From: an uncultured Planctomycetia bacterium
Lineage (GTDB): Bacteria > Omnitrophota > Gorgyraeia > Duberdicusellales > 4484-171
Direction of reading: 5' to 3'
DNA length: 27,730 nucleotides
NCBI GenBank assembly: GCA_964492865.1
Contig: CAZBLX010000001.1
Coordinates: 1-27,730, forward strand
A program made the translations under genes and the position numbers. Position 1 is the stretch's first letter; each line of letters opens with the position of its first letter. The notes beneath the pieces were generated by a model. That model saw only the letters and a program-made list of their open reading frames with translations, was not told the origin of the DNA and did not search any database. Positions 4,500 to 27,730 of this stretch are shown here, piece by piece.

Positions 4500-7400
4500 T
4501 TACCAAGGATTGTTTTGACGAACTGTTTCTTTCAACGATGTAATAACCTGTAATTTTTCTATTTCTCTTTTTTCTTCTGACTCAATGATTACTTCAAAAG
4601 TAGAACTTAAATCTCTGTTTGCTTCTCTTTCTCCTCCATCAAAAAGAGGTTTTATTCTTTCCTCAAAGTATTCTTTGTTATTATATTCATCAGCAAAAAA
4701 GTTAGCTATTTTTTCTTTGATAAGAAAAGTATAAATCTCTTTTGCAATCCAATTAAAATCTTCTTCTAATTTAGCATCAACTCTTGTGGAAAGAACTGCC
4801 TCTGTTCCTGAAAATCTTACCAGTGTCCATCCTTTATCTTTAAAGAATATCTTTATTCCATCTATATCTGAATAACCAAAACTTCTTTCTCTGGCAAATT
4901 CAATCAACATCTTTTTAACTTCCTTCTTTATAATCTTCAGATTACCTTTGTATTTAGATAATAAGAATTCATGATAAGGAGGTCTTATATCAGGGCTGAA
5001 ATGCCATGAAGGTAATTTATTGATAAGCTTTTCTGTATTCCAATTTACCTCTTTTAAAGCCAAAAGTAAAAGTAAGCTTGCCTGAATTGAATCATCAAAA
5101 AATCCATTTCTTCCAAACCAAGAAGGATACATATGAGCTGATGCTTCAGCACCAAATACAGCACCTGTCTCTCTCATCTTCTTTTTTATATTGGCATGCC
5201 CTGTTTTAAATGTTACAGGAATTCCTCCCAATTCTTCAATCTTTTTAATAATACAGTCACTCATCTTTACATCCACTACTATCTTTGCTTTGGGGAATTC
5301 TTTCAATATTCTTTCTACAAATGTGCCCAAAATATGTTCTCCCTGAAAATCAAATCTTCTCTTTTTAATTTGAGCTACAGCACCAATTCTATCTCCATCT
5401 CCATCAATCCCTATTGCTATATGAGCATCTACCTCTTTTAGTTTCTCGTAAGCCTGATCCATATTCTTCTTTACCGTGGGGTCAGGAAGGTGAGCAGGAA
5501 ATCTTCCGTCAGGTTTCATATTTATTCCTACAACTTCTGCTCCTAATCTTTCTAAAACTTCTTTTAGAGCCTGGCCTGCTGTTCCATTTGCTGGATCAAT
5601 TACTACCTTTAAACCTTTAAGAGGTAAACCTTGCTTTTTAATCTTTTCTTCAACAAATTCATCTGAACTATCAACTAACTCTTTATATGAATATTTCCTC
5701 TGCAAACTTAACCATTCACTTGCTCCTTTTGCCCAACAGGAAGCAATCACCATATTTACATACTTCTTTAATATTTTTTCTGAATTTTCTCTAATTAAAT
5801 TGGCTTTTCTTTTAAATCCTACAAATTCTTGAGTATCTAAGCTCTTTTTGGCATATTCGGAAATCTTTTTTATCTCCTCAGTTGTAGGATTTCTCTGGCC
5901 CAATTTATCCTTTATCACTACTTTAAATCCATTCTCTCGAGGAGGATTATGAGAGGCAGTAACCATTATTCCTAAATCGGAATCAAAATAAAGAGTAGCG
6001 AAGTAAAGGATAGGGGTGGTAACTAAACCTATATCAATCACATCTATACCTAAATTTAACAAATTCTCTATTATTCTTTTTGCAATCCTTTCTGAAGAAA
6101 ACCGTGCATCTTTTCCTACAACACAGAGTAATTTATCTTTCTTATAAAACTCTTTCTGGGACTTAATCAAACCTTTTACCCAGGCATCTATAACTTCAAG
6201 AGTAAGGTATTTTTCTGCATCAGGAGCTCGCCAATCATAACTACGCGTAATAAAATCTATTCTCTCCTTATTTGTATAATCTCTTCCTCCATCTACCTCT
6301 TGTTTTTCTTGAGGAAAAACTATTCTGACAAAAGAATCTAAATTATCAAATGCTGAATATTTTTCTTTCTCAATTTCCAAAAATTCAAAAGTTAAATCTC
6401 TCAAAATAGAAAACCATCTCTTTAAATCATCAGCACAAAAAATTTCTCCCTTCCATTCACAACAAATATATTTATGATACAAACCTTCCTCTTCAACAAC
6501 ACCTCCTATATAAGAAGATATTTCTTCTTCTAAAGTAGAGAGATTTAAAATTAAAGAAAGTGTTTCTATCCAAGCTTCTGGAAAGAAAAAAGAAAAATAC
6601 TCTTCAGCTTTTTTTAAAGTTTTTCCTGTCTGAGAAGTGGCATCAATTATTAAAATTCTTAAAGGATTATTTAAGGAATTTTTTAATAAAGCAATTTCTT
6701 TTTTTATCTTCTCCAGATTCTTTTTATCTTCATTTATAAGATGAATTTCAGGAGCAAGAATTTGAGCCTGAGGTATATTTAAAAACTTAGACAAAATCTC
6801 ATAAACTATAATTAAAGGCCAGGCTTCTGTTCCTATAAATACACAAAGTTGAGGGAAAAATTCATCTTCTTTTATCTTTCTCAGCGCTTGATACATATAA
6901 AAAGGAACTCTTTCTTTCTTAAGAGTGAATATTTCGCCTCCACCATATTCTCTTCCTATTTTTATCTCTATATAGAAATCTTCATCAGGAATTTTTATAA
7001 ATTCTTGCAGATTTCTTCCTCCATCTCTTCTTTCAAAATTATTTAAAAATCCTCTTAAAATCTCATCTATCTTTTCTCTCTTTACAATCCTCACTCTATT
7101 CTGCAAATCTGTAGGCAGAAGTCTTTTTTCTCCACAAAAAAAGCTATATTTTCCCACTTTTAACATAGAGATATCATTTTTACTATCCCCAAAAACTGCT
7201 ATTTCATCTTCAGGTATCTTGTAAAAATCTAAAAAGTCTTTTACTGCTTCCTTTTTAGAAACTAAAGAGATATCTATAGCTACACTGGAGTAGGTAATCT
7301 TGAATTTTCTAAGAGAGTCTATATTCCTCAATCTCTTTTTGACTAACTTCGCCAGTTCCTTCATTAAATATTTTTCCTCAAAAAATTTAACTGTTACCAT

Positions 7401-10400
7401 AGAAATCTTAGGATAAGCTTTTATTATTAAGTTTTCTCCTCTCTTTACCAAGATTTCAGCCTCTTTTATTAACAAATTCCAATCTTCTCTTTTTATCTCT
7501 TCTAAACTTTCTCCAATCTCTTTTATAATCTTTTTTTTCTCTTCATAAGAACTAAATTTGCTATGCTTTATATCTACTTTTAAATTACCTTCTTCATCAA
7601 AATATCCCCAGACACTGCCCATCTCACTCAAAAAGAAAACTTTTTTCTTCCTGCGAATATCTTGAGGTAATCTTTCTCCTACCAACTCCTCCAAAGATTT
7701 AAGAGACTGTCCACTCACTATTACAAAAAATATGTCTTTCCTTACCAATTCTGATATTAACTCTATTTTCTTCTTTCCTAAAGGTATGGATGCTTTTTCT
7801 AAAGTATCATCATAATCAGTAAATATTGCTTTTATTCTGCCCCCATCTTTTAAAATCCTTTTTCTTCCTCTTCTTTCTGACTCAATATCTTTAACTACTT
7901 TCTCTAAAACTTCTTCTTTTATATCTGGTTCAATCTCTCTAATTATTTCAGGAAAATCTACTATCTCTCCTATCTCTTCATATTCTCTCTTCAGTCTTCT
8001 TGCTTCATTTCTTAATCTTCTGAAATATCTCTTTGCTATCTCATCTGCAGAAAATTTCAACCAGCTAACACTTAAATACGGTGAACCAATAACTACACCT
8101 TTTTTCTCTAATTTCTTTCTTTTCTCTTCTAAATCTGCAAATGTAATCCCATTTTCTGCGATAATCTTAATAAGTTTCCTCAATCGGGAAGTAGTCATCT
8201 TTATTTTAAATAAAGAAAATACTCTTAAAATGTCTTCTCGTTTGAGTTTTAAATGTTCATTTTCTTTTAAAAATTTCTCCAGAGGGTCTTCTGCCTTTAT
8301 CTTTTCTTCTATTTTCTGAATCAATTCTTCTATTTCTGAAGAATCAGAATACTTCCTTAATCTTTTTAACTTTCTTAATGCTCTTTTAAGCTTACCTTCT
8401 TTTATCCAGTTTTCTGCTTTTTTAAATTCTCTTCTTACCATCTCTTCTCTGTTTGCTTCCTCCAGAAAAACTTTTTTAGAACTTCTAAACATCTTTTTTT
8501 CTTGTGCTCTCTTTTCCTCAATTACCTTTATTTCTCTGCCCATTATCTTACTAATAATTTCCTCCCACGAAACTCCTCTTTTTTTCTTTATATCTAAAAG
8601 GGTTCTATATTCCTCAAGATACTGTCTTCTAAATCTTACTATGTCAAATACAGAAGAATCTCCTATAAATTCTTCTACTGCTTTTTTATATTTTGGCTTT
8701 TTTACTTCTTCTTTTATCTCTATCTCTTCCTCTTTTTTACCTACTATATCAGCAATAATTTTTTCTAAAGAAATTCCTTTCTTTCTTTCTATTCGTCGTA
8801 TAGTTCTGCATTCTTCAGGATATGACCTTCTAAACTCAGTAATATTAAATACATTTGAATCACCCATAAATTCTTTTACCGCTTTCTTATACTTCACCTC
8901 TTTTATTTTTTTCTCATACTCACATAAAGAATTCAGGGTAGGAAGAAATCCTTTCTCTATCCAGCTTGCTTCTAATCTATATCTTCTCAGTATACGACTG
9001 GTAACTTCACCTTTTTCCTGAGCTTTCTTTAAATCAGATAAACTTTTATAACCTAATATATTGGCTATAAAAAGCCAGGCTTTATATTGATTATGGATAT
9101 CCTTCCAATAGTTAGAAGAAATCTTTTTTAAACAGAACCAAGCAGCTTCTCTGAATACAGGGTTTTTCTTCACATAATTATGCGACTTATAAATTTCAAA
9201 AATCATTCCTTTAAATCGAGCAATTATTCCTCCCAGATGCATCTTATAAAATTCATCACGTCCAGGATAAAAGATATTCTTCTCGATCATCATATCTACC
9301 AACTTCTTTAAAGGAGTTTTCTTTCCTATTAAATCTAAAAATTCCCCAGGCAATGTTTTTCTTAGAAGCCATTCTAAAGCTTTCTCTTCTTTTTCTCTAT
9401 CCCAGCTTATATCTTTTATCACTAACCAGAATACTCTCTCCAGCAAAGGATAGTCTTTGTCAATCTCTGCTTCCTTTAGAATTTTTAAATAATCCAGTTC
9501 ATTCCTTTCTTGATAATAGTTTTTCAATCCAAAAAGACCAAAATTTACAAAACTTCTATAGCCAAAACATCTTAAATCATTTTCAATCAAATATCTTTCT
9601 GCTTCCTCTAAACTTATCCTTTTCTCTTTTAAGTTTTGAGAAAGCTTTATAAAATCCTTTGCTACTTTGCCAAATAACCATCTTATTGCTTTTTTGCGCA
9701 TCTTTATATTATCCCACTTTGTCTCTTTTAATAACCAAGGGGCTGTTTTCAAAACAGGATCCCATCTCTCAAGTTCAGTAACTTTTATAATCCATTCATA
9801 GTTCTTATCTCTTAAAAAAGAAAACTTTCTTTGTAATTCCCTAAAGGTTGGGTATCTTATCCTATTTGACAAGACAAAATTTTCCAAATCTTCATAATTT
9901 ATTTTTCCTTGATGATATTTTTCTATTTTTTCTTTATATTCTTGAGGCAATCTCTTTAAAATATATTCTTTAAGCTTAATTATTCTTTCTTCCTCTTTTC
10001 CTCCATCTTTAATAAATCCTTTCCCATTTCTATTTTTCTCCGCAAAAATCTTTAACAATCCTAATTTTTCTGTGACAGACTTAACATGAAGAAGCTGGGT
10101 GAGTTTAGGAATTCTATAGAAGAAAGAATTGGTGAATTTAAAATCTCTATCCTTAAATGAATTATTGAGCTCCTCATCAGACAAACCGTTATTATTCTTT
10201 CTATCCTTATTTTTATCAATCTTATTAAGCGAAATAGATAATTTCGTTTCTTTCCTCCCTCTGAAAGAAGAAAGTATGGCACTATTTCCATCTATGAAAC
10301 CTGAAATTCCCCCATCTTTTTTTTCCAACTCACGGGACACCAGAAACCTTATCCATGCATTATTAATTCTATTTTTAATCTCCTCAGGCTTATTAACATC

Positions 10401-22400: not shown

Positions 22401-25400
22401 TCCTTTTACTTTTATCTTTCTTAATTTAGCAAATTCTTTCTCTGCCAAGTTCCTGTTCAAAAATCCTTGAGGAAATTTCTTCCCTAAAAGTTTTAATGCT
22501 TCACGATATGGAGAAAATGTATGCCATAAATCCTCTTCTTTCTCTACTTTGGAAAGCAATTCTTCTTTTATTTTGGGGGGAATTTTACGTTGTCTTATTA
22601 AACGTTTCGCCTTATTATAATTATGCTCCTGGCACAATTTTCTTACTATTTTTTTGACCTCTTCTATTCTTAAATTCTGCAAAATCTCATCAAATAATTG
22701 AGGAAACTTTTTACGATACAAAGCTATAAATTTCTCCACCTCTTCTATCCTGCCCTGAGAAAGCAAAGCATAACATTTCTTTCTTATCTCATCCCTGCTT
22801 TCTTCTTGTCTCTTTCTAACCAGAGAAGTTTTTTCCCTAATAATAGATTTTCTCCTTGCCGAAAGATTATCTTTTTTCTTTATAACTTTTCTTGAAAGCA
22901 ATACTTTTCTTTTTTCTTCCCTTCTCTCTTTTACTTCTACTCCTTTTATCCCTCTTCGATATTTCTCAATTAATTCTTGTAACTCTTGGTTTCTTTTTAT
23001 CATCCCTCTAAGTTTACTTCTTCCTAAACCTAACAAATTAGCCGCTGCAGAAATATTGCCTCCTGTCTCCTCCAAAGCTTTTTTAACCCTTAAGTATAAC
23101 TCCTCTAAAGGAGGATATTTTCCTTTCTTTATCGCTAAAATTATCTCTTCCGCCTGCTTTGTCAGTATATATCCTTCCTTTTTATCTTTCTTTCTCAAAA
23201 ATCCTTTCTCCTCTAATTTTTTCAAATATTGAAAAATCAAATTCTCTCCTTTTCCTAAAAGCTGGGCTATACTGTCTTCGGCAACTCCCATATAATAAAG
23301 AATAAGTATCTTTAAAGCTAAAGAAGATAATTTTCTAAAACCAGCCTCTTCCAACTTCCTACAACCTTCCCATAAAGAATTTAATTCTTTAACAAATTCC
23401 TCCCAATATTTAAACCGTTTTCTTCTTAACCTAATCTCTTTATCATCTATCTTCATCCAATAAGTTACCCCTAAATCCCATGCTTTCTTTAAAGTAAGGG
23501 TACCATCATAAAGAGAGTTGATGAACTCCTCTCCTCTTTTTGTCAAGATTAACTTATTATTCCTTAATTCTATCAATCCCAATTTCTTCATTCTATGAGT
23601 ATGAGTTGTGGAACCAGGAGAGATTAAATCTCTTAAAGGAATACCTCTACTTTTTGCCCATAAAAACTTTACATCATTTTCGGTAACAAGAAGCTTTTCT
23701 TCCCACTTTTTAAATTTAGAAATTAGCCTTTTTGCATCTTCCTGAAAAGTTCTTCCTCTTCCTGTCAAAACAGAAATTAAATCCTCTACACTGGCTTGAT
23801 TTCTTAATACTTTTTCTAAAACTATCTCTAATTCTTCATTCAAATAATAATCGCCAAATTTTTCCTTCTGGAAAATTAGCCCTCTATTTAAAAGTTTTAA
23901 AAAGCGCTTCTCCACTATTTTCTTTCCTGATTTCTGGGTATATATACCAGTTATATCTGTAACTAAGGATGGTTTTCTTTTTCCTTTTTCTATACAGATA
24001 AGAATAGCTAAATCTTTCTCATCAAACTCCCTAGGTAACTTTGAAGAAAGTCCTTTCAATATTTTAATTTCCTTCTCCCTCAATCCTAATCCTAATCTTA
24101 GATTCTTCCAGCTGAATCCAATAAAACGAGGAGGAAGTCTCAAGCTTACCAATAATTCATTCACTTCCCATTTACTTTTAAGATAATTTTCTAAAATTCT
24201 TCTGACTGACTCCTTTAAAATGAATCTATCCTCCTTCTGAATAAGAAAATCAGTGTTTTTATCTATTTTTTCTAAAGCATCTTTTATTTCCCAACCAGCC
24301 AACTTTCCTTTCAGTAAATCTTTAAGCTCATCAAAACTTAAATTACCTTTTTCTGCTAAAGTAAGTAATACTAAGAAATCATTTTTGGTTAACAACATTC
24401 CTTTATAAAAAGGAAATCTTTCTATCTTTGCTATCTGCTCCTTTTTCCCTCCATCCTGAGTAATTATCTCTTTTGTTAAATCCTGCATAATTGCCTTTGC
24501 TACTTTCTGATTTATCCAAGGCTGACCTGTGGTAAAAATGGCTATCAAATCAGAAGTATTTAAAATTCGAAGAGTATATGGTTTAAGCTCCTCATAATTT
24601 CTCCATACATCTTTAAAAGAAAGCTTTCCTCCTCTATCTTTCTGGGTAAAAACATCTAAATCTAAGGAGGCTGCTTTGGGCAAATATTGACAAACCTTTA
24701 TTTCCTCTTTTAAACTAACTACTTTTTCAAAAGAAGCAGTTTCAAATCTTACTATCTCTTCAAATTCCTTCTGAAGCATCTTCAGTTTTTCAAATTTAAC
24801 AGGAGAAGTTATCCAGAAAATAGAAGAAGAAAAATAAAAAGAAGTCGCAGAAAGAAATTCTCCTACTCCATAACTAAGCAAATGTCTGATTTTTTCTTCT
24901 TTATTTTTTAACCAGAAATTAGATAAATACTTTACTGAAGGAAAAACCCAATCAGAATGCTGGTCTATATGGAAAAGAATGAAATCTTTTATCTCTTCCT
25001 CTAAAAGAAATACATTCAAAAGATTATGAACATCTGCCAAAAATACCTTTTTATCTCCCAACTCTATCAAAATATATCTGTCTTTACCTAATCTATAGTA
25101 ATTCTTTCCTACTTTTATCCTAAAAACTTTTTCTCCTAACTCTAAATTCTTTAAATCCTTATCTAAAAGAGGAAGTTTTCTTTGTTGAATAATCACCCTT
25201 CCTCCGTCTTTCTCTTTTATCTTTTGCTCAAGCAGTTTAAGTGCTTCTTGATAAACTTTTTTATTTATGTTCTCCTCTTTAAAACTTCTCCACAACTTAT
25301 ATCTTACCTCCTCCTCACCTAATATAAGAAAGGCTTTAGTTAAAAATTTAACTGGTTTGCTATAATCAGGAGAGGTATGCTGCATCTTTAATCTTTTCAC

Positions 25401-27730
25401 TAAACTTTTTGCGTCTTCTTTTAAAATCTCTGCTGCTTTTTTATTTATCTTTTCAGGAGAAGGTAGCTGAGAAAATTTTTCTTCTATTACCTTTAGTCCT
25501 TCTTCTAAACCAATATAAATATCAGAGTAAGGATATAATCTTTCTACTTTTGAAGGATGAAAATACTCTTCTAAAGTATAAAACCCTATATCTAAACAAA
25601 GCTCTCCGTGCTTTCTTCCCAACGCAGAAGGTAAATTCACAATTCTACTTTCTATCAAATCTAATCCTAAATTATTCACCCTTTCTTTTAAACAAGCAGG
25701 AAACTCTTCTCTCAACTCCATCTTTTCTAAAACATCCAACTCTCCTAACTTAATTACCTCCAAATCTAAATCTTCAATTATCTGAGAACTCCAGTCTATC
25801 TCCTGTGATGTTTTATAAAGATAGGTGGGACTGCCAGTTATAGCAATTGCGACTTTATATCCTTTCTCATTAAGCTTTAAAACAACATCAAATAAAATTT
25901 CCAATAAATTCTTTCTTCCCTGAGGAGTAATAATCTGCCAGGCTTGAGGGCTAAGATAACTTGGCATTTTATAGTTCTTCTCAAAGATACCCCCGTCTTT
26001 TTTCTGCTTACTAAAATTGACAGAAATATCTCTATTTAAAACACTCATTCCTTCCTCATCATTTAACTCTTTTCTTAAAATTTCTTTACCTTCAAATTCA
26101 ACATAATCTAATACTTTTTCTATTTCTTCTCTTATCCATTCATAAGGTATAGAAAAAATCTCTTTATTAATTCTTCCTTCTTCTATATCTTTCTTTATCG
26201 CTCTTCTGCTTAATCCATGAAAATCCCTTAATACCTCTATAAATTCTTTTAAAGTTACTCTCTTTAAAGGCTGATTATCTTTGGAACGGGAGGCAGTTAT
26301 ATCTCCAATCCTTTCTCCCTGAGGAGTGCTTAAAACATTTATCAACGACATATCATCACATAATACTCCTTTCTTGGTAACAGGATTAAAACTTTTTACA
26401 AAAATTCTAATATAAGGTTCCATTTTCCTTTGCACTACTTCTTTAACCCTTTCTTTAACTTCCTCATTCCATCTCTTGTAATTTTCGGTTACTCTTTTAA
26501 TTGCTTCTATTCCATCCTCTCCTTCTAAAAACTCTACTGCCATTACTGCTCTTAAGGAAATCTCATCATAATAAGGATCATCGTAGCGAGAAATTACCAT
26601 AAATACCTCACCAGGAGTAGCTACTGCTTCTCTATCTATCTTTTTAAGTTCAGCTAAAGCCTCAATTCTCTTTTTAAATACTTCCAAAATATTTTCTATA
26701 GAGTAACAGGCAGCAGGGTTGAATTCACTAATACTTACAAAAAGAGGATATTCTTTCTCTTGTGTTTTAAAAGTTACTTTATAACTTACATCTGGACGAT
26801 TATGCACAGCAAATTCTATTTTTACCTCCTCTATCTTTTCTGATCTTTCCACTTCAGGAAAAATCTTTACTAATACTTCTCCTAATAATCCTTTCTCTAT
26901 AAGAATCGAAATATCTTCCATATCTATATCAGGAACAAATACCCATCCTAATTTTTCCCGATGCTCTTTTATTACCTCTTCAGAAGGCATAATCTTTTCA
27001 ATCTTATCTTCTCCTATAGAGTATTCTTGAGAAATAGAACCAGAAACTGCCTTCTTGATTATCTCCTCAACATCTTTATCTCCCCCATCTTTTGTTTGCT
27101 TAGAGAACTTTTTCTTAAACTTACCTCTTGGTTGTTTTACATCTCTCCTATATATCAATCTTTTAACTCTACCATAGGTAACCTCTTTTCCAGCTTTAAT
27201 CAATTCTTGAATAATTAAATTTATTTCTTCCTCTGATACAGATCTTCCAAATATAAGCTTTGAATTCTGAGCCAATTTTTTTGAATCTATGATGGTAGCC
27301 TTAAAGTGTTGTAAGGCGTTTTCAACTAACCACTTATCTGATCTTTCCTCCCAATTTTTAGCTCTCTTTATCACCTTAAAACAATATCCATCAGATATCT
27401 CTACTCCAAATTTTTCTCTTACCACTCTTTTTACCTGTAAAATAGAAACTATCTTTTTCTTGTAGCTATTAGGATATCCTTTAGCCAAGAAGAAGATATC
27501 ACTTGAAGGTAAATTTAATCCTTTCTTTTCAGCATAGACTTTAATTTCTGGATATAGGTCTATTATCTTTCTGTAGCTTTTAGGATAAATCTTAGCTAAA
27601 CAGAAGATATTGCTTTGAGATAAACTTAATCCCTTCTTCTCAACATAGGCCTTAATTTCTGGATATAGGTCTATTATTCTCCTGTAGCTTTTGGGATAAC
27701 TCTTAGCTAAATAGAAAATATCACTGGGAG
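4500..27730 (-). CDS. Giant multi-domain protein, 5'-truncated by the window (>7,742 aa)
   Basis: Stop TAA at 4500-4502. The ORF track gives 7,662 aa from a TTG at 27488, but manual translation of 27489-27728 shows no stop and continuing tandem repeats, so the real start is outside the window. Several recognisable enzyme motifs are in frame. Confidence 0.93.
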   Translation of the reverse strand, partial: PSDIFYLAKSYPKSYRRIIDLYPEIKAYVEKKGLSLSQSNIFCLAKIYPKSYRKIIDLYPEIKVYAEKKGLNLPSSDIFFLAKGYPNSYKKKIVSILQVKRVVREKFGVEISDGYCFKVIKRAKNWEERSDKWLVENALQHFKATIIDSKKLAQNSKLIFGRSVSEEEINLIIQELIKAGKEVTYGRVKRLIYRRDVKQPRGKFKKKFSKQTKDGGDKDVEEIIKKAVSGSISQEYSIGEDKIEKIMPSEEVIKEHREKLGWVFVPDIDMEDISILIEKGLLGEVLVKIFPEVERSEKIEEVKIEFAVHNRPDVSYKVTFKTQEKEYPLFVSISEFNPAACYSIENILEVFKKRIEALAELKKIDREAVATPGEVFMVISRYDDPYYDEISLRAVMAVEFLEGEDGIEAIKRVTENYKRWNEEVKERVKEVVQRKMEPYIRIFVKSFNPVTKKGVLCDDMSLINVLSTPQGERIGDITASRSKDNQPLKRVTLKEFIEVLRDFHGLSRRAIKKDIEEGRINKEIFSIPYEWIREEIEKVLDYVEFEGKEILRKELNDEEGMSVLNRDISVNFSKQKKDGGIFEKNYKMPSYLSPQAWQIITPQGRKNLLEILFDVVLKLNEKGYKVAIAITGSPTYLYKTSQEIDWSSQIIEDLDLEVIKLGELDVLEKMELREEFPACLKERVNNLGLDLIESRIVNLPSALGRKHGELCLDIGFYTLEEYFHPSKVERLYPYSDIYIGLEEGLKVIEEKFSQLPSPEKINKKAAEILKEDAKSLVKRLKMQHTSPDYSKPVKFLTKAFLILGEEEVRYKLWRSFKEENINKKVYQEALKLLEQKIKEKDGGRVIIQQRKLPLLDKDLKNLELGEKVFRIKVGKNYYRLGKDRYILIELGDKKVFLADVHNLLNVFLLEEEIKDFILFHIDQHSDWVFPSVKYLSNFWLKNKEEKIRHLLSYGVGEFLSATSFYFSSSIFWITSPVKFEKLKMLQKEFEEIVRFETASFEKVVSLKEEIKVCQYLPKAASLDLDVFTQKDRGGKLSFKDVWRNYEELKPYTLRILNTSDLIAIFTTGQPWINQKVAKAIMQDLTKEIITQDGGKKEQIAKIERFPFYKGMLLTKNDFLVLLTLAEKGNLSFDELKDLLKGKLAGWEIKDALEKIDKNTDFLIQKEDRFILKESVRRILENYLKSKWEVNELLVSLRLPPRFIGFSWKNLRLGLGLREKEIKILKGLSSKLPREFDEKDLAILICIEKGKRKPSLVTDITGIYTQKSGKKIVEKRFLKLLNRGLIFQKEKFGDYYLNEELEIVLEKVLRNQASVEDLISVLTGRGRTFQEDAKRLISKFKKWEEKLLVTENDVKFLWAKSRGIPLRDLISPGSTTHTHRMKKLGLIELRNNKLILTKRGEEFINSLYDGTLTLKKAWDLGVTYWMKIDDKEIRLRRKRFKYWEEFVKELNSLWEGCRKLEEAGFRKLSSLALKILILYYMGVAEDSIAQLLGKGENLIFQYLKKLEEKGFLRKKDKKEGYILTKQAEEIILAIKKGKYPPLEELYLRVKKALEETGGNISAAANLLGLGRSKLRGMIKRNQELQELIEKYRRGIKGVEVKERREEKRKVLLSRKVIKKKDNLSARRKSIIREKTSLVRKRQEESRDEIRKKCYALLSQGRIEEVEKFIALYRKKFPQLFDEILQNLRIEEVKKIVRKLCQEHNYNKAKRLIRQRKIPPKIKEELLSKVEKEEDLWHTFSPYREALKLLGKKFPQGFLNRNLAEKEFAKLRKIKVKGLIPSFEWMVRQKILIPVSSGRYLWNEKIKEWIRETEDFKVEKQDDEKIKHLENEDEKISPEQFYEDFFSSSRFEEYLKKKRKKDDGEKYLDGGRDREERRKEFFKKVEELERERLTHYSKSTLFIIYLISEGITSWGEIRKEVKEVLGGKRENIYLSLWRLIKKGIVERKEKYLFTLTEEGKKLLRKILEGQFQKEKRIFEKRLEEKIIEKKGKITLIAKDLKVSRTRVRNAILKNPQLKKLWESFKRKKRIEKITLEFESLNKGVKKEDILLIDALKLPCVRKEILTQSKWIIIKNLFLGKRGELIFAGRIWAELGREFRYKNANVLLYEGKPIEVLLSQKRIIFAQIWKEDNLIGVFYQKLSKETLKKLSQGKLLLKRFWVGKTGTIRFAGKKVKRAALANREIEVEIFNQEGEVEFISAHLPQGEILSLQKGKRFFTRKKGKSRQKSRREKKIERKTKACIERDKGFYKKKTEKERLRQKERGRKINTRIEKILRRLFGEKDIICEELLDRREVKILYDLEKIGVVKMIREKVKSRKVLEWLKFLGDEERKQVYLNLWYLYGDVSWQDIKQIIKEKGFSHYRRRIEKEISRRPFIYFHKWRRINSDGGIPLTTYPKRLKDFDDWFRKRFSPQKGAFADLGIGMAWDRKTGLPTPFTTVEFAEKFPQLKVYGVDKVIPYLVAYLVVKKGDYIVLKDENKNLIGFLKISVLKDSFSLLEVIENREELAELIFFDEKETESDSFEEKKIIFKPYEVVKKEKGLNNLEFIKADLRDLDKNWEKEKVDWARIFNVLMHYSHKQAYKILSSISGIVKEGGLIFEGAGLNTLIFSQYRVKKKRLIMEELWLRKDFPKWAIFFHLKDLPTFLRNEEGGELLSILFRIYIDYLSKEGKWEDFVKEKLLEKNYKVIDGEYTSWIGIRWKNKELTLLDEIEESSQDRKNDGGEQSKLTFSLKGLSQIHEETKNKKRDVISEIKEYQLEKIKELRVEGISDENIAELLMTSPLKDERGRLARAILTEIYLKRARDVDRVLRKLEREGVRKERIEEIRERLMEIRRLIIRIRERLKQKWVLKKRLEVSDDEIRKKIRELIESGKEITFNTVVDSILTDALVERIEDGIEDETVRNFLSDLVRETPGIFIDKESVNFVKRHLELLIPILRIDGFVDHWTDSRLEFYSPMGFTDRVKELIYRLIILGVNSNKKNYQEKAVELFFKFGDVIERKDRNRIEENVRERFKERDEGISEHLIMLIFANRFGIEKVREALESKNVEFRQAINEFMSGLKCTEKLMELLDAFDALLMLGEDIIWNILKNQGSEFYRIISAIKDITPEFINIVKNNPEDVRTAFSNSDYSLWWLSELLNSIKKLPNFVDIINGIKLTRVYKLHIIFRCPIEEIKEDLKSFLDGIKYLREFDDEDIEKSLRYPYGFVGTIQLFGRYPEFVRVIQLFRKRSDLVEFNKKLRMEAICASLDGDPKYMKYIREIVQNIQKDLQEEDFIKILDSILREAGKEEIDFAFYISSRYSVEGINFFDILYILCLGKIARYIGLAGLRVLRDWLRFREARKMLVKAPGTFINGMKYIEEVSDKEEITSAISRTFTGFVLMTQTVGVNPNFINFIKIFGLLNASEFFENYMREPAFFDISKLDKYENIDTSTLSLEDLKYILLWELDDKFLKYMGLLSFKNILKGVPTRKLYKDIVIPEIEKFNADLNLMDEETRKRRNDAIVQLIRVLAIIESNEDIANYVLERDKKTGEYLFARAIKRLISEGIEIDRIVTSIIKYGDIWDRFTADDKTFEIIGKNIDKFSWIVPVVRYLKDSKRERELEVLDKLIREEIKPVNNESIWSLNRVEFPVYLMDYLEYGEEATNLGYIHGQLTPYRVDKIREALRIGDKKTIEKALEKGIWGKTLVEIAKQEKSIDDVLKERKRVEEENDAIKAEFEEWLNSDRVPKEVSEVLERIKEMSEDGWEIGITSGTARNMLLVFLGKLDRYEDHDFDNVLRKIDIPLKEFADRFKDEEFKNTLLEIKEERITIPSILDDLEDKIKRFEPEALEELYRRRREKINEYLGKYLPLDIIERNIEEIEKVIRKISNSMKIGDIRGETSAISRSDLGINAIQIFYNSINKRFEVYDPDNSIVYAKNGIVKIYSGIDSIFDPERPHPFSAVEYSVAEIVLADAIRFVRAKALGELKLDEEDSLIYSKALRQSFGIGLELPEFLRDSILKKLSTNLNKLVTDVAERGNWNIEDTIKLVRTIAPYMNLSDLRIKLRAIIEKNLDDLPPVCKKYPDVEEIFTINKIYNFLQSRNYGREVLKNFLENGEVPDDIALHGISLTKAKTIRISAGENLPIIINLLGILEDKALKSGSMVREKYKTEVSVVQAYGEGVYIGRNLENPLKFAEEGGALAIINTKELLNDFRNLDITDNSGDGKTNLVIHDREWNPIEIPLKYIEKIYVKPELYRYSRIYWQRAISNLSKEKSIPYEKAEQELSERTFGRGRRFSDVVECIYLGSFKIAADKVDGGRKLFKSELLKILQNTPFNFSRKSSKLRDNQILNYLFNIGRHGKQTITYLSVKKIRRKVHKMFCVIIEVIKGKGNKILEKSEQEIREKELKLSELERKRLFLLNNLGNDGGRKRNFEFNSLYSVIKGLFNSAKNCLNYLDQRMIEIFPPDRRGVKTILGMLIAGLSPLCILISLPHELLHALFNTLTFPDYVLDKVRCPSWLDPGGVITRYLPFVERESIPDFSVRYVRLEQPILPFALPKQLGLILNNFVPNIYNATLGFWLVRRGKRTDNYWIVGIGMLQVIYVASLAFCTAFKLINYGDFKAGVYALLNLTGYTGDLPLWIMAPLGLESGIVVLLISYLLSLHIDNFGSKIRGRIQKAKRITRKENISQDLFTADEIKNSQDRKNDGGLFDKESNISFKNSFVYFCLKCGKSFMNVYRNLYFFTQKLNFFFKEINFRINPSKVSFKLISYTFNLLIQSLKLFFKFTSYVLNLLIQSFNFSRKSSKLRDNQILNYLFNIGRHGKQTITYLYNSVKENIFAFIITDWLRFSRKERSKFLTSYSFKRLLLIYLKNFFLRAPPLKLTTFLKNLLAKIISFSSFFPSFVHSLKQVFLFLRKIIFIVFTKFLFCRLFFKNVRKPSIKIHQPASLSNINQIKWLRHKEGSVAIINVRGDNEEHAEIVEEILKKSLFELGSIRVRTICASEKEYVDSLNEALLIIKDYVEKSGKRVIVVITAGHSNPDPQKWESVHRIIKELYRKGVIIIAAANNEYAYGRISYPAAFKEVLAVSREINKEKIIYEEKDAHILYFDNRYGEVEFKGEKRVGNSFLAPRVAISVAYMLEENPELSFEQIRERFRGNNYDGGKGVEENCLNFSKDTFNIIPNDLDEFVEIYRKYFGEEEREILLREIGKLKKLKIEDIDTELYRRQLHSIEEILEKKPLPLKILFLISLLKTKNLNIFTYHIAESRLLHFIEFYPNCISKSVIFTLRDFLEEYPLGKYRDVIAMMLSSIVKSSVSPLDRKALEVLEEAAEKVSSSHYIFNLYKGVLKSFGEKKKHDNKEALKSFKTMFIREEIEKSLSERDFKKIVFIVPPVSWLGGSGDIPFILNTIKMLRKIYSEKEIKVILHNRDDFISALRMSSISEALKSNLIKEIKKATFIDKKTFSTEDVEFIWLNAKDTWQYMKEEILKPSAVSLIIVYRPASIDLNEQIISPFISKLEKEAPVIELYEFGIEGSSYFEERSSNSILSWGFGQKCVGVAPVDEEFMKKVDSLPKGAKKIKERKKELLEKLLPSLEDKELDKLTKSKWGVIYSFAYFSMYEIYFSALEKARESSREFKDEDLTIFVFRVGKGGFDEYETFKNLVEKGNYNVYEVPWETIFGIKISPKTTGHKISVISIPTTLEKERFDELFSLCELPIVVRGPNTLSNAIYLSAKRGVIWFMEFQPWQKKAKNDFFKFVRDCNSLEEEDKSFIKRLYEISRDSFAELFINPRYTKVWRCLSKELLDVNKPEEIKNRINNAWIRFLVSRELEKKDGGISGFIDGNSAILSSFRGRKETKLSISLNKIDKNKDRKNNNGLSDEELNNSFKDRDFKFTNSFFYRIPKLTQLLHVKSVTEKLGLLKIFAEKNRNGKGFIKDGGKEEERIIKLKEYILKRLPQEYKEKIEKYHQGKINYEDLENFVLSNRIRYPTFRELQRKFSFLRDKNYEWIIKVTELERWDPVLKTAPWLLKETKWDNIKMRKKAIRWLFGKVAKDFIKLSQNLKEKRISLEEAERYLIENDLRCFGYRSFVNFGLFGLKNYYQERNELDYLKILKEAEIDKDYPLLERVFWLVIKDISWDREKEEKALEWLLRKTLPGEFLDLIGKKTPLKKLVDMMIEKNIFYPGRDEFYKMHLGGIIARFKGMIFEIYKSHNYVKKNPVFREAAWFCLKKISSNYWKDIHNQYKAWLFIANILGYKSLSDLKKAQEKGEVTSRILRRYRLEASWIEKGFLPTLNSLCEYEKKIKEVKYKKAVKEFMGDSNVFNITEFRRSYPEECRTIRRIERKKGISLEKIIADIVGKKEEEIEIKEEVKKPKYKKAVEEFIGDSSVFDIVRFRRQYLEEYRTLLDIKKKRGVSWEEIISKIMGREIKVIEEKRAQEKKMFRSSKKVFLEEANREEMVRREFKKAENWIKEGKLKRALRKLKRLRKYSDSSEIEELIQKIEEKIKAEDPLEKFLKENEHLKLKREDILRVFSLFKIKMTTSRLRKLIKIIAENGITFADLEEKRKKLEKKGVVIGSPYLSVSWLKFSADEIAKRYFRRLRNEARRLKREYEEIGEIVDFPEIIREIEPDIKEEVLEKVVKDIESERRGRKRILKDGGRIKAIFTDYDDTLEKASIPLGKKKIELISELVRKDIFFVIVSGQSLKSLEELVGERLPQDIRRKKKVFFLSEMGSVWGYFDEEGNLKVDIKHSKFSSYEEKKKIIKEIGESLEEIKREDWNLLIKEAEILVKRGENLIIKAYPKISMVTVKFFEEKYLMKELAKLVKKRLRNIDSLRKFKITYSSVAIDISLVSKKEAVKDFLDFYKIPEDEIAVFGDSKNDISMLKVGKYSFFCGEKRLLPTDLQNRVRIVKREKIDEILRGFLNNFERRDGGRNLQEFIKIPDEDFYIEIKIGREYGGGEIFTLKKERVPFYMYQALRKIKEDEFFPQLCVFIGTEAWPLIIVYEILSKFLNIPQAQILAPEIHLINEDKKNLEKIKKEIALLKNSLNNPLRILIIDATSQTGKTLKKAEEYFSFFFPEAWIETLSLILNLSTLEEEISSYIGGVVEEEGLYHKYICCEWKGEIFCADDLKRWFSILRDLTFEFLEIEKEKYSAFDNLDSFVRIVFPQEKQEVDGGRDYTNKERIDFITRSYDWRAPDAEKYLTLEVIDAWVKGLIKSQKEFYKKDKLLCVVGKDARFSSERIAKRIIENLLNLGIDVIDIGLVTTPILYFATLYFDSDLGIMVTASHNPPRENGFKVVIKDKLGQRNPTTEEIKKISEYAKKSLDTQEFVGFKRKANLIRENSEKILKKYVNMVIASCWAKGASEWLSLQRKYSYKELVDSSDEFVEEKIKKQGLPLKGLKVVIDPANGTAGQALKEVLERLGAEVVGINMKPDGRFPAHLPDPTVKKNMDQAYEKLKEVDAHIAIGIDGDGDRIGAVAQIKKRRFDFQGEHILGTFVERILKEFPKAKIVVDVKMSDCIIKKIEELGGIPVTFKTGHANIKKKMRETGAVFGAEASAHMYPSWFGRNGFFDDSIQASLLLLLALKEVNWNTEKLINKLPSWHFSPDIRPPYHEFLLSKYKGNLKIIKKEVKKMLIEFARERSFGYSDIDGIKIFFKDKGWTLVRFSGTEAVLSTRVDAKLEEDFNWIAKEIYTFLIKEKIANFFADEYNNKEYFEERIKPLFDGGEREANRDLSSTFEVIIESEEKREIEKLQVITSLKETVRQNNPW
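4700..6270 (-). other. Domain of giant protein: alpha-D-phosphohexomutase (PMM/PGM family)
   Basis: VVGKDARFSS, catalytic phosphoserine loop GIMVTASHNP (about 5944-5970), metal loop DGDGDR (about 5389-5406), sugar loop GAEASAH and LVRFSGTE. All four motifs are intact. Confidence 0.9.
6480..6900 (-). other. Domain of giant protein: type I phosphoribosyltransferase-like
   Basis: LRILIIDATSQTGKTL (about 6615-6660) resembles the PRPP-binding loop, with the second acidic residue replaced by Ala. Confidence 0.55.
7060..7838 (-). other. Domain of giant protein: HAD-superfamily hydrolase, subfamily IIB (Cof-like)
   Basis: Motif I IFTDYDDTL, motif II IVSGQS, motif III SKKEAV and motif IV FGDSKNDISML. 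Confidence 0.88.
8540..8893 (-). repeat. Tandem 67-aa (201-bp) duplication within the giant protein
   Basis: KYKKAVKEFMGDSNVFNITEFRRSYPEE... versus KYKKAVEEFIGDSSVFDIVRFRRQYLEE..., with anchors at 8881 and 8680. Confidence 0.9.
9060..9980 (-). repeat. About three degenerate repeats of roughly 100 aa with conserved Trp
   Basis: PWLLKETKWD..KKAIRWL, FWLVIKDISWD..EKALEWL and AWFCLKKISSNYW..YKAWLF. Anchor Trp codons at 9735, 9426 and 9138. Confidence 0.65.
10066..10205 (+). pseudogene. Degenerate, internally deleted copy of the nested antisense coiled-coil cassette
   Basis: 10066-10083 matches 13300-13317 at 15/18. 10153-10205 matches 13651-13703 at 41/53, ungapped. An in-register mini-ORF at 10086-10160 reads MKKLGEFRNSIEERIGEFKISILK. 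Confidence 0.6.
10560..11670 (-). other. Domain of giant protein: GT-B glycosyltransferase resembling EarP (EF-P rhamnosyltransferase) family
   Basis: Ordered motifs GSGDIPFIL..ML, LYEFG, WGFG..VG, ERFDELFSLCELPIVVRGPNTLSNA and IWFMEFQPW parallel the recalled EarP motifs GDIGV, EYL, PGF..GG, YD.LL..CD.NFVRGEDSF.RA and W.IYPQ. Confidence 0.6.
12345..12925 (-). other. Domain of giant protein: subtilase (S8)-like, catalytic Asp apparently replaced by Asn
   Basis: VAIINV (Asp position), EEHAEIV (His), IIAAANN (oxyanion Asn), SYPAA..VLAV and GNSFLAPRVA (Ser motif, compare GTSMAAPHVA). Confidence 0.75.
13306..13334 (+). promoter_or_regulatory. Near-consensus sigma70 promoter, antisense within the giant gene
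   Basis: TTGACA (13306-13311), 17-bp spacer, TATAGT (13329-13334) with extended -10 TG at 13326-13327. The ATG follows at 13344. Confidence 0.8.
13344..13646 (+). CDS. Small coiled-coil protein (100 aa), nested antisense in the giant ORF
   Basis: E/K/R/I-rich helical protein with an 18-aa internal repeat (KRLDEKVENVRSEFEEKF / KRLDEKIESIRNEFEANF). It has its own promoter, no SD (probably leaderless), and casts a typical S/L/F-rich shadow ORF (13370-13603, minus). Confidence 0.7.
   Translation: MPANVKQIIQDLIIPEFRTLSAEIKRLDEKVENVRSEFEEKFKRLDEKIESIRNEFEANFRRIDSEIDLLKEEIKFLREEIKISINIHERLAALEAKINK
13815..14400 (-). other. Domain of giant protein: membrane-embedded HExxH metallopeptidase-like (M50B/DUF3267-like)
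   Basis: LISLPHELLHALF (HELLH at 14316-14330) in a hydrophobic helix, followed by further hydrophobic segments and a candidate third ligand in GYTGDL. Confidence 0.55.
14698..14828 (+). pseudogene. Truncated duplicate of the antisense cassette (5' part), with a 6-bp deletion in the promoter spacer
   Basis: 14705-14806 is identical to 13319-13420 (102/102). TTGACA at 14698-14703 is 11 bp from TATAGT at 14715-14720. ORF 14730-14828 encodes MPANVKQIIQDLIIPEFRTLSAEIKRSVLEYF. Confidence 0.8.
15050..15450 (-). other. Domain of giant protein: ADP-ribosyltransferase-fold (H-Y-type)-like
   Basis: IALHGIS, then GILEDKALKSG, then YGEGVYIG..PLKFA, then LVIHD..IPLKYIEKIYV. This order matches the HG / G.GvY / final-strand pattern of PARP/KptA-like ARTs. 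Confidence 0.55.
15830..16515 (-). other. Domain of giant protein: CCA-adding/poly(A) polymerase head-like nucleotidyltransferase
   Basis: IGITSGTARNMLL..DHDFD (compare VGGAVRD.LL..DiD), SRSDLGINAI (compare RRDFTINA), YDPD and ADAIRFVR..GELKLDEE (compare lRalRF..gf.id). Confidence 0.65.
19900..20500 (-). other. Domain of giant protein: class I SAM-dependent methyltransferase
   Basis: FADLGIG (motif I), VYGVD, LEFIKADL, IFNVLMHY and IVKEGGLIFEG. Confidence 0.72.
21690..24400 (-). other. Region of giant protein: array of winged-helix and Fis-type HTH domains
   Basis: At least five wHTH-like units ending in L.k.Gli.......y.LT..G-type wings, plus Fis-like ALEETGGNISAAANLLGLGRSKL (about 22995-23085) and KGKITLIAKDLKVSRTRV (about 21715-21770). 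Confidence 0.7.
24470..25100 (-). other. Domain of giant protein: UPF0489/arginase-deacetylase-fold-like
   Basis: ADVHN, FHIDQHSDW, SLDLDVF and IAIFTTGQPW, in the order typical of the HxDxHxD / xDxDxF metal-binding fold. Confidence 0.6.
25540..25900 (-). other. Domain of giant protein: Pol-beta superfamily nucleotidyltransferase-like
   Basis: IAITGS...EDLDLEV, followed by a third-acid strand LCLDIGF. Confidence 0.5.
26290..26850 (-). other. Domain of giant protein: possible protein-kinase-like (APH/RIO-type) fold
   Basis: VATPGEV, VMAVEFLEG, LCDDMSLINVL and RIGDI resemble the hinge, catalytic loop (D....N) and metal-binding Asp. The usual His before the Asp is absent. Confidence 0.4.
27450..27730 (-). 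repeat. Tandem 37-aa (111-bp) repeats in the giant ORF, at least 2.5 units, running off the window
   Basis: SDIFYLAKSYPKSYRRIIDLYPEIKAYVEKKGLSLSQ / SNIFCLAKIYPKSYRKIIDLYPEIKVYAEKKGLNLPS / SDIFFLAKGYPNSYKKK. DNA anchors at 27703, 27592 and 27481. Confidence 0.92.

Follow-up and report, generated by a model that had tools for sequence, protein, structure and literature searches.

The DNA analysed here, a stretch of 27,730 nucleotides from contig CAZBLX010000001.1 (NCBI GenBank assembly GCA_964492865.1) that is referred to below as the window, carries on its minus strand the 3' part of a giant gene. The visible protein is a string of modules, and nearly every junction between them bears the tripeptide Asp-Gly-Gly (DGG). 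We tentatively read this gene as encoding a polyprotein, an operon compressed into one open reading frame (ORF), whose enzyme cassettes would be released at a junction motif specific to the lineage. We infer both the cleavage and the protease, and belief and doubt in this reading are nearly in balance.

Results

A giant stop-free reading frame in an Omnitrophota genome

The giant gene is genuine and belongs to an Omnitrophota bacterium. Its frame runs from 27728 to 4503 through 7,742 sense codons with no in-frame stop up to the window edge. The sole terminal stop is at 4500-4502, and the 5' end of the gene lies beyond the window; the TTG at 27488 that appears in the ORF list is merely the first start-like codon of the frame. 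With a stop expected in 9.2% of codons from the composition of the coding strand, a run of 7,742 would arise by chance with a probability of about 1e-326. The two remaining frames of the same strand contain 870 and 796 stops, and the longest other ORF overlapping the region has 151 aa. GC and purine skew display a uniformly purine-rich coding strand across the whole ORF, 13-14 kb excepted. An alternative genetic code was ruled out because the neighbouring genes have normal lengths and ordinary stops. The TrpE encoded next to the giant gene is 79% identical to that of 'Candidatus Omnitrophica bacterium 4484_70.2' in a protein database search, and all further named matches (about 61-68% identity) are from Omnitrophota/Omnitrophica. 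A scan of a genome collection with TrpE yielded matches of at most 53% identity, scattered over several phyla, and did not inform the placement. The original prediction had described one stop-free frame of 23.2 kb and pointed to giant genes in candidate-phylum bacteria such as Omnitrophota. The frame is intact, though cut at its 5' end, and the TrpE matches place the host in this phylum.

The 3' part of the gene, up to 5.8 kb, was recovered in four other assemblies (ENA ERZ27248349, ENA ERZ27227317, JGI 3300014913 and Logan SRR7051320), with protein identities of 99.3-100% and neither indel nor stop. Each comparison over this 5.8 kb gives about 10 synonymous and 11-14 non-synonymous nucleotide differences. 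Because non-synonymous sites far outnumber synonymous ones, we take these figures to indicate moderate purifying selection on the 3' part. Exact DNA searches of genome and metagenome contigs, a protein-based metagenome scan and a search for homologues of the first 1,100 aa returned no match that would extend the gene in the 5' direction.

The near-identical strains differ in short clustered patches, at aa 6012-6081 and 7076-7121 relative to L001 and at aa 7602-7642 relative to L003. This clustering suggests recombination between variants of the giant gene.

DGG marks the junctions between modules

In an unbiased scan of all tripeptides, DGG was found 17 times in the giant protein against 1.02 expected (Poisson P = 1.4e-15). 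The next most over-represented tripeptide reaches P = 3e-6, and no tripeptide in any of 280 control proteins had a P below 9e-7. At the 17 sites, no position other than the D and the two glycines is invariant. The residue that follows is Lys or Arg at 10 of the 17, the residue preceding the Asp is never acidic, and no GGG, GSG or longer Gly runs occur at the junctions. The surroundings are hydrophilic: the ten residues on each side of DGG have a Kyte-Doolittle value of -1.15, compared to -0.43 +/- 0.17 at random positions, and 0 of 2,000 resamplings reach this value. Two further junctions are degenerate, with RGG at 24627-24635 and NNG (within DRKNNNG) at 10185-10193. Cutting the giant protein at the 17 DGG and these 2 degenerate sites yields the 20 segments listed in Table 1.

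DGG coincides with the natural ends of the recognisable enzymes, namely the HAD-IIB phosphatase, the phosphoglucomutase/phosphomannomutase (PGM/PMM) and the subtilase. Position 1 of the HAD profile begins 4-5 residues past a DGG. Domain I of the PGM begins 14 residues past a DGG, and the PGM chain stops about 30 residues before the next one. The subtilase match stops 5 residues short of the end of its segment, which is 2 residues before the DGG.

The Gly codons at the DGG sites are mixed (GGA, GGG, GGT and GGC) in about background proportions, and the constraint therefore acts on the peptide and not on a Shine-Dalgarno-like DNA word. A translated Shine-Dalgarno sequence (GGAGG) or other DNA signal was ruled out on the same basis; GGTGGT and GGGGGC are among the words used. 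Separate initiation for each cassette was also ruled out, as there is no consistent ATG, GTG or TTG after the junctions. The chain must therefore be made whole.

Three junctions share an extended (S)QDRKN-DGG sequence or its NNG variant. At the DNA level, 13684-13714 matches 19570-19600 (94% identity) and 13651-13723 matches 10153-10225 (73% identity), and two of the three also share the next ~25 residues. The second of these pairs, DNA repeat D3, links the junction between segments 14 and 15 to that at 13651-13723. Some junctions have therefore been duplicated, flanks included, inside the giant gene.

A relative uses a different tripeptide at a homologous junction

Relatives were sought by an exhaustive HMMER search with the HAD, phosphoribosyltransferase-like (PRTase-like) and PGM cassettes against 1.84 billion representatives. 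Three close relatives of the PGM cassette were found: P0038 and P0044, each at 70% identity, and P0039 at 53-54%. A word-indexed search with 4,998 aa gave one match, the distant P0001, the query probably having been swamped by low-complexity words. The three close relatives resemble the giant protein in having a cassette architecture with a short over-represented junction motif. They differ from it in that the motif is SSS(S)(P/I/T/L) instead of DGG, and PGM is the only cassette in common.

P0038 is a complete ORF of 3,530 aa (JGI 3300016457 contig Ga0186713_162638; L006 199-10791, plus strand), with a stop upstream of its TTG start and no signal peptide. Homology to the giant protein is confined to PGM, with 7160-7695 of the giant protein corresponding to 913-1447 of P0038 at 70% identity. 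SSS is the most over-represented tripeptide of P0038, with 20 occurrences against 1.19 expected (P = 5e-18). Its serines are encoded by both AGY and TCN codons, so that a DNA signal is rejected as the explanation of the junction motif here too. The junction that follows PGM can be compared directly: the giant protein reads ...YFEERIKPLF-DGG where P0038 reads ...YFEKEIKLLI-SSSP. The homology between the two proteins begins about 12 residues after one junction motif and stops two residues before the next. Elsewhere in P0038, a HATPase_c domain fills one SSS-bounded segment. P0038 runs on for 2,000 aa past PGM; the giant gene ends 43 aa after its last DGG.

In P0039, a fragment from Hainich groundwater, PGM is flanked by SSSNSP and STSSP. 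P0044, a fragment from NCBI GCA_011052615.1, has a PGM cassette that by reading is nearly that of P0038, preceded by a different module (an FG-GAP propeller). Because P0044 and P0038 share a PGM cassette behind different upstream modules, the comparison points to cassette shuffling. A further relative, P0040 (92% identical), retains the DGG of the last junction. No enriched junction tripeptide was found in three other PGM-containing fusions (P0001, P0175 and P0041), and the junction motif is therefore not universal.

P0175 (1,835 aa) and P0001 (3,350 aa; L093 5311-15363) each join PGM to a CofD-like unit, and in P0175 a HAD-like unit can be read as well. P0001 is named Omnitrophota by NCBI. 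The recurrence of HAD and PGM across differently built fusions hints at one shared pathway.

Modules of the giant protein

The original prediction of about 13 unrelated modules was roughly right in number; cutting at the motif gives 20 segments, of which six have family-level support. These contain a Fis-type helix-turn-helix (HTH_8) with winged-helix units, a methyltransferase (weak), a Peptidase S8, a HAD-IIB phosphatase, a PRTase-like unit (very weak) and PGM/PMM. As had also been claimed, the cargo is mostly cytoplasmic-type enzymes and DNA-binding units, with no adhesin repeats. HTH_8, the weak methyltransferase, Peptidase_S8, Hydrolase_3 and PGM_PMM_I-IV occur once each, and large tandem domain arrays are absent.

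Table 1. Features of the giant ORF and of the antisense gene within it (window coordinates; each DGG closes its segment).
Feature	Coordinates	Strand	Details
Giant ORF	4500..27728	-	7,742 sense codons + stop 4500-4502
Segment 1, 216 aa, N-terminally cut	27081..27728	-	37-aa tandem repeats; no family match; DGG 27081-27089
Segment 2, 364 aa	25989..27080	-	no family match; DGG 25989-25997
Segment 3, 263 aa	25200..25988	-	no family match; DGG 25200-25208
Segments 4 + 5, 191 + 60 aa	24447..25199	-	no family match; RGG 24627-24635 between; DGG 24447-24455
Segment 6, 775 aa, winged-helix units + Fis-type HTH_8 (23007-23084)	22122..24446	-	DGG 22122-22130
Segment 7, 518 aa, basic, weak winged-helix signal	20568..22121	-	TrmB/PadR below cut-off; DGG 20568-20576
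Segment 8, 333 aa, class-I S-adenosylmethionine methyltransferase-like (core 19941-20132)	19569..20567	-	ends SQDRKNDGG; DGG 19569-19577
Segment 9, 1,572 aa	14853..19568	-	no detectable family; mostly helical by eye; DGG 14853-14861
Segment 10, 110 aa	14523..14852	-	holds copy 2 of the 102-nt perfect repeat (14705-14806); DGG 14523-14531
Segment 11, 280 aa, membrane unit	13683..14522	-	three strong hydrophobic helices 13836-14390 (hydropathy scan); SQDRKNDGG; DGG 13683-13691
F/L/S-rich stretch, 249 aa, start of segment 12	12936..13682	-	stop-free though antisense to small plus-strand gene
Compact subtilase, Peptidase S8, QhpE-like	12336..12935	-	Ser motif GNSFLAP 12420-12440; DGG 12321-12329
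Segment 13, 671 aa	10308..12320	-	no family match; DGG 10308-10316
Segments 14 + 15, 41 + 62 aa, short spacers	9999..10307	-	DRKNNNG junction 10185-10193 between; DGG 9999-10007
Segment 16, 720 aa	7839..9998	-	no family match; internal duplicated ~67-aa motif (repeat D4); DGG 7839-7847
Segment 17, 274 aa, HAD-IIB (Cof-type) sugar phosphatase	7017..7838	-	domain 7137-7829; DGG 7017-7025
Segment 18, 244 aa, phosphoribosyltransferase-like	6285..7016	-	phosphoribosyl pyrophosphate (PRPP)-loop-like motif 6618-6662; DGG 6285-6293
Segment 19, 551 aa, phosphoglucomutase/phosphomannomutase	4632..6284	-	domains I-IV 4734-6245; DGG 4632-4640
Segment 20, 43-aa C-terminal tail after last DGG	4503..4631	-	kept with its DGG in P0040 (92% identical)
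Antisense small gene within giant ORF	13306..13646	+	ATG 13344; 100-codon coiled-coil product

All four domains of segment 19 match Pfam PGM_PMM_I-IV above the cut-offs (E 7e-29 to 2e-5), the segment aligns with P. aeruginosa PMM/PGM at E 3.5e-56, and both the phosphoserine loop (TASHNPP) and the metal loop (GIDGDGDRIG) can be read in its translation. Segment 17 matches Hydrolase_3 (E 3.6e-15; residues 5-234 against profile positions 1-227) and TIGR01484 (74 bits against a cut-off of 41.8; residues 4-232 against model positions 1-218 of 221), with PfHAD1 as its PDB match. It carries FTDYDDTL at residues 6-13, and the DGG before it lies 8 residues ahead of the start of motif I (DYDDT). In segment 18, the PRPP-loop-like motif LRILIIDATSQTGKT (6618-6662) was read by eye; a weak PADLOC PRTase match (E 0.006) is the only hit, with no Pfam or PDB match. 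Together, the HAD, PRTase-like and PGM segments suggest sugar-phosphate chemistry. An AlphaFold2 model of the HAD and PRTase stretch, computed without an alignment, had a mean predicted local distance difference test score of 37.8 and was unusable.

The subtilase module scores 25.6 bits with Pfam S8 (cut-off 21.8) and E 8.5e-10 with NCBIfam QhpE. When aligned to subtilisin, the oxyanion Asn155 (AAANN) and Ser221 (GNSFLAP) can be placed, and a plausible His is found in EEHAEIV. Segment 6 matches Pfam HTH_8 at E 2.4e-7 and also gives CasR/Csa3-type winged helix-turn-helix matches. For segment 8, Methyltransf_25/31/11 were matched at E 1e-4 to 3e-3, under the Pfam cut-offs. The membrane unit, segment 11, has an HExxH sequence (HELLH, 14316-14330) that was read from the translation and has no convincing family match.

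Nothing convincing was found for segments 1-5, 7, 9, 10, 13-16 and 20 (about 4,600 aa) in Pfam, NCBIfam, PHROGs, PADLOC or PDB. The PDB, PADLOC, PHROGs and NCBIfam searches added nothing for segments 1-5, 9, 10, 13 and 16, and gave weak or below-cut-off hints only for segments 7, 11 and 18. A 111-nt (37-aa) tandem repeat at 27456-27725 reaches the window edge. Segment 16 has two copies (8659-8689 and 8860-8890) of a motif resembling it, '...YP.xYR.I....KKG(L/I)SL', and this may represent a recurring small helical unit.

An unusual patch and an antisense gene at 13-14 kb

The 249-aa stretch at 12936-13682, which precedes the subtilase module, differs from the remainder of the giant protein in composition (F 16%, L 14%, S 10% and E 1.6%, compared to 5%, 10.5%, 6% and 11% elsewhere), and its GC skew is reversed. 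One possibility is an insertion that kept the frame and that the protein tolerates as a spacer or propeptide. The small antisense gene at this position has a promoter, TTGACA-17-TATAGT at 13306-13334, with 11/12 consensus matches and an extended TG. Codons TTA, CTA and TCA, which would create stops in the giant frame, are absent from the antisense ORF and make up 6.2% of codons elsewhere (P = 0.0016). Because the antisense ORF avoids these three codons, both frames seem to be kept open. The patch at 13-14 kb is the weakest point for the assembly and, at once, the strongest hint of selection keeping the giant frame intact.

A perfect 102-nt direct repeat (13319-13420 and 14705-14806) lies in frame, its copies offset by 1,386 nt (462 codons). 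The repeated sequence includes the antisense promoter and codons 1-28 of the antisense gene; the second copy hits a stop after about 33 codons. The repeat may be the scar of a duplication or insertion, and it is a possible weak spot in the assembly.

Comparable patches were observed in P0038. Its last ~60 codons are F/Y/L-rich and overlap a gene on the opposite strand (L006 10612-10992, minus strand), and an F/L/S-rich patch is present at residues ~2700-2830. Giant ORFs of this type may repeatedly contain such antisense-looking patches.

Genomic neighbourhood

The window is part of a contig of 92,394 bp. Beside the giant gene lie common chromosomal genes, those for RibH, TrpE, HisI and a methyl-accepting chemotaxis protein (MCP), the last being convergent with the giant gene. 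No Rfam families or tRNAs were found in the window. Relatives with the same HisI-TrpE-RibH-NusB block have no giant gene at the corresponding position. In L005, whose housekeeping proteins are about 90% identical, a gene for a 255-aa secreted protein lies beside MCP, where the 3' end of the giant gene would be, near the contig end (L005 1-1000). In L087-L090 (TrpE identity 72-79%), both MCP and the giant gene are absent within 10 kb of HisI. Because relatives that share the block do not have the giant gene there, the locus is accessory and variable.

Discussion

A possible cellular polyprotein

Five observations bear on the function of the junction motif: the tripeptide is uniform within the giant protein, it is switched in a relative, the constraint acts on the peptide, the cassettes have native-like termini, and cassettes appear to be mobile. 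Taken together, they form the pattern expected if some dedicated factor reads the motif and co-evolves with it. An endoprotease would be the simplest reader of this sort, and the product would then be a polyprotein. At least 18-20 unrelated cassettes would be translated as a single chain, and DGG, set in a hydrophilic spacer at nearly every junction, would be the recognition mark of the endoprotease that frees them. Candidates for this enzyme are the embedded subtilase, a domain in the upstream N-terminal part and a trans-acting enzyme. Related giant genes would use Ser-Ser-Ser as an alternative mark, and cassettes such as PGM would move between giant genes as units bounded by the marks. The reading frame, the host phylum, the statistics and peptide-level nature of the motif, its match to domain ends, the motif swap in a relative and the behaviour of the cassettes are observed; that the chain is cut, at which bond, by which protease and to what physiological end is inferred. 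The presence of an S8 module inside the chain, with its Ser and oxyanion Asn in place, is consistent with such processing. Somewhat more doubtful, yet possible, is the wider reading that some Omnitrophota giant genes encode cellular polyproteins punctuated by a lineage-specific code, DGG here and SSS(P) in the relatives. Entire operons would be read into a single chain that is severed at the tripeptide, and the stretches from mark to mark would be traded among giant genes as mobile cassettes.

A number of observations weigh against a polyprotein. To our knowledge, subtilases are not known for Gly-Gly specificity, and the catalytic Asp of the S8 module is not placeable: AIIN stands at the usual position, with an Asp five residues on (AIIN...RGD). 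No protease module is common to the giant gene and P0038, and P0038 has no recognisable protease. The SSS of the relatives is often followed by Pro, an unfavourable residue at P1'. Short Ser- or Gly-rich stretches are classic flexible linkers that remain uncleaved, and an unrelated control ORF has an enriched linker tripeptide of its own, APT, which occurs 14 times. Some DGG-bounded segments are tiny (41-62 aa), and one holds the 249-aa stretch that looks non-functional. Finally, the independent assemblies confirm only the last 5.8 kb, and the other 17.4 kb come from this window alone.

Alternative explanations

The main rival, which we consider rather unlikely, is an uncleaved megaprotein with its domains arranged as beads on a string, in which DGG, or SSS in the relatives, is a short flexible hinge or docking mark. 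Linkers typically consist of Gly and Ser, the hydrophilic junctions are probably disordered, and enriched linker tripeptides such as APT do occur in ordinary multidomain proteins. P0001 and P0175, which have no junction motif, are plausibly true multidomain proteins of this kind, and the family searches of the giant protein and P0038 did not find a cognate protease. However, a hinge requires neither an Asp that is invariant at 17 of 17 sites nor exactly two Gly with no GGG, GSG or longer runs. The motif is uniform in each protein yet switched as a set between relatives, as a co-evolving reader predicts and a hinge does not. Cassettes with full native-like termini, and a membrane unit amid ~7,000 soluble residues, are likewise not what a string of permanently joined domains would lead one to expect.

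An exported effector train, secreted or injected into prey with its cassettes released there, is improbable. MARTX toxins, the model for such a train, have RTX-type glycine-rich repeats, a C80 cysteine protease domain activated by inositol hexakisphosphate and a dedicated type I secretion system (T1SS). No segment of the giant protein has a Pfam or NCBIfam match to the C80 domain. The only tandem arrays are the 37-aa repeat at the window edge and one 39-nt two-copy array, and no T1SS lies beside the giant gene on its visible side, where the neighbours are MCP, HisI, TrpE and RibH; other secretion genes are likewise absent from the visible part. A predatory or episymbiotic way of life has been proposed for Omnitrophota, and a link drawn between their giant proteins and attacks on prey (bioRxiv 10.1101/2023.11.21.568195). 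The locus is accessory, with close relatives that have no giant gene by HisI and TrpE, and the N-terminus lies outside the window, all of which would fit an effector. Against this, the cargo of PGM, HAD phosphatase and HTH regulators is housekeeping-like and not toxin-like, and the complete relative P0038 starts without a signal peptide. The original prediction had offered a polyprotein or a MARTX-like effector train, acting on the cytoplasm of a host or prey or processed in the producer. The former gains real, if indirect, support from DGG at the junctions and SSS at the homologous junctions of a relative; the latter finds none in the visible 7,742 residues.

Junctions that break slowly without any enzyme, as self-cleaving links in a hydrothermal organism, are a very improbable explanation. 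Few peptide bonds are chemically as labile as Asp-Gly and Ser-Ser, and DGG, the NNG at 10185-10193 and SSS are all built of the residues most prone to succinimide formation or N-to-O acyl shift. The closest named relative belongs to the '4484_' series of metagenome-assembled genomes, which we take to be from Guaymas Basin hydrothermal sediment, and the failure to find a protease common to the giant gene and P0038 would also be accounted for. Spontaneous scission is, however, slow and incomplete, with isomerisation as the usual outcome; the SSS-type P0039 comes from groundwater, according to its record name, and no computed result directly supports self-cleavage.

A chimeric assembly or a decaying pseudogene with an accidentally open frame is scarcely credible. 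In its favour, an assembler might be misled by the perfect 102-nt repeat (13319-13420 and 14705-14806), the ORF contains a 249-aa patch that looks antisense, and 17.4 kb are present in this window only. Against it, the chance of such a stop-free run is ~1e-326, coding-strand skew is uniform save at 13-14 kb, the 3' 5.8 kb keep the same frame in four other assemblies under what appears to be moderate purifying selection, and the antisense gene avoids TTA, CTA and TCA (P = 0.0016).

Implications of a junction code

If cleavage at the junctions is true, bacteria would have a cellular equivalent of the polyprotein strategy of viruses, with cassette shuffling added to it, and the punctuation code would be a so far undescribed manner in which bacterial genes are organised and expressed. 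The junction tripeptide yields predictions of cleavage at the level of single residues that can be tested by proteomics, and these would be the first concrete ones for giant proteins of this type. It also provides a rule for cutting giant proteins in silico into foldable units, and a handle on the protease, since genomes can be compared for the type of motif and the set of proteases that they encode. Even with cleavage refuted, the motif would mark domain boundaries in giant proteins that are otherwise unannotatable.

Comparison with known systems

Viral polyproteins are the closest functional parallel to the polyprotein reading. The pp220 and pp62 polyproteins of African swine fever virus are cut at GG-X, and coronavirus PLpro cuts after LXGG. 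Like these, the giant gene encodes many proteins in one ORF with a short conserved motif ending in GG at the junctions (17 DGG). Unlike them, it is a cellular chromosomal gene, and cleavage of its product is a prediction. The proteases of viral polyproteins are cysteine proteases, and none was found in the visible giant protein.

The giant protein is like MARTX in being a very long bacterial protein with a train of unrelated enzymatic modules, which in MARTX are released by proteolysis; it is unlike MARTX in that its cargo is not toxin-like. Double-glycine leaders and the precursors of ribosomally synthesised and post-translationally modified peptides (RiPPs) were also compared. In the former, C39 peptidases cleave after Gly-Gly, and in multi-core RiPP precursors recurrent recognition motifs flank the cassettes. 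As in C39 substrates, Gly-Gly ends the junction motif at the 17 DGG sites. In contrast to double-glycine leaders, hydrophobic residues at -4, -7, -12 and -15 are at or below background, and -4 is mostly basic or polar. Neither the 7,742 visible aa nor the neighbouring 4.5 kb gave a match to a C39 peptidase domain, the N-terminal part and the upstream genes lying outside the window. The cassettes of the giant protein are whole enzymes and not peptides, unlike those of RiPP precursors.

Among described proteins, the giant protein most resembles other giants of its own phylum. In Omnitrophota giants, West-Roberts et al. (bioRxiv 10.1101/2023.11.21.568195) described an N-terminal signal peptide together with a C39 or S8 peptidase domain and proposed cleavage by these domains; whether the giants act uncut is posed there as a question, and the cleavage points were stated to be unknown, which prevented the splitting of the giants for structure prediction. 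In the giant protein studied here, the S8 module is internal (12336-12935) and the N-terminus lies beyond the window. Giant proteins of Omnitrophota often have C39 domains (bioRxiv 10.1101/2023.11.21.568195; bioRxiv 10.64898/2026.06.07.730766). A survey with a threshold of 10,000 aa defined class 1 giants as 'multi-enzyme metabolic clusters' in which PGM/PMM, HAD and methyltransferase are recurrent (bioRxiv 10.64898/2026.06.07.730766). The giant gene is like class 1 in coming from the same phylum, in having a single very long ORF made up of enzymes such as PGM/PMM, HAD hydrolase, methyltransferase and peptidase, all listed as recurrent in the two preprints, and in containing many distinct Pfam families, none dominant by copy number. 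Its visible 7,742 aa are below the 10,000-aa threshold of the survey, though the window truncates the gene. The terms DGG, Gly-Gly and double-glycine are absent from the texts of both papers, and literature searches for a bacterial polyprotein of this kind returned nothing. Unlike in the published Omnitrophota giants, cassette borders are marked here by a specific tripeptide, which is SSS in a relative. Giant multi-enzyme genes are thus already known in Omnitrophota, and the junction code is, as far as the searchable literature goes, a new property of them.

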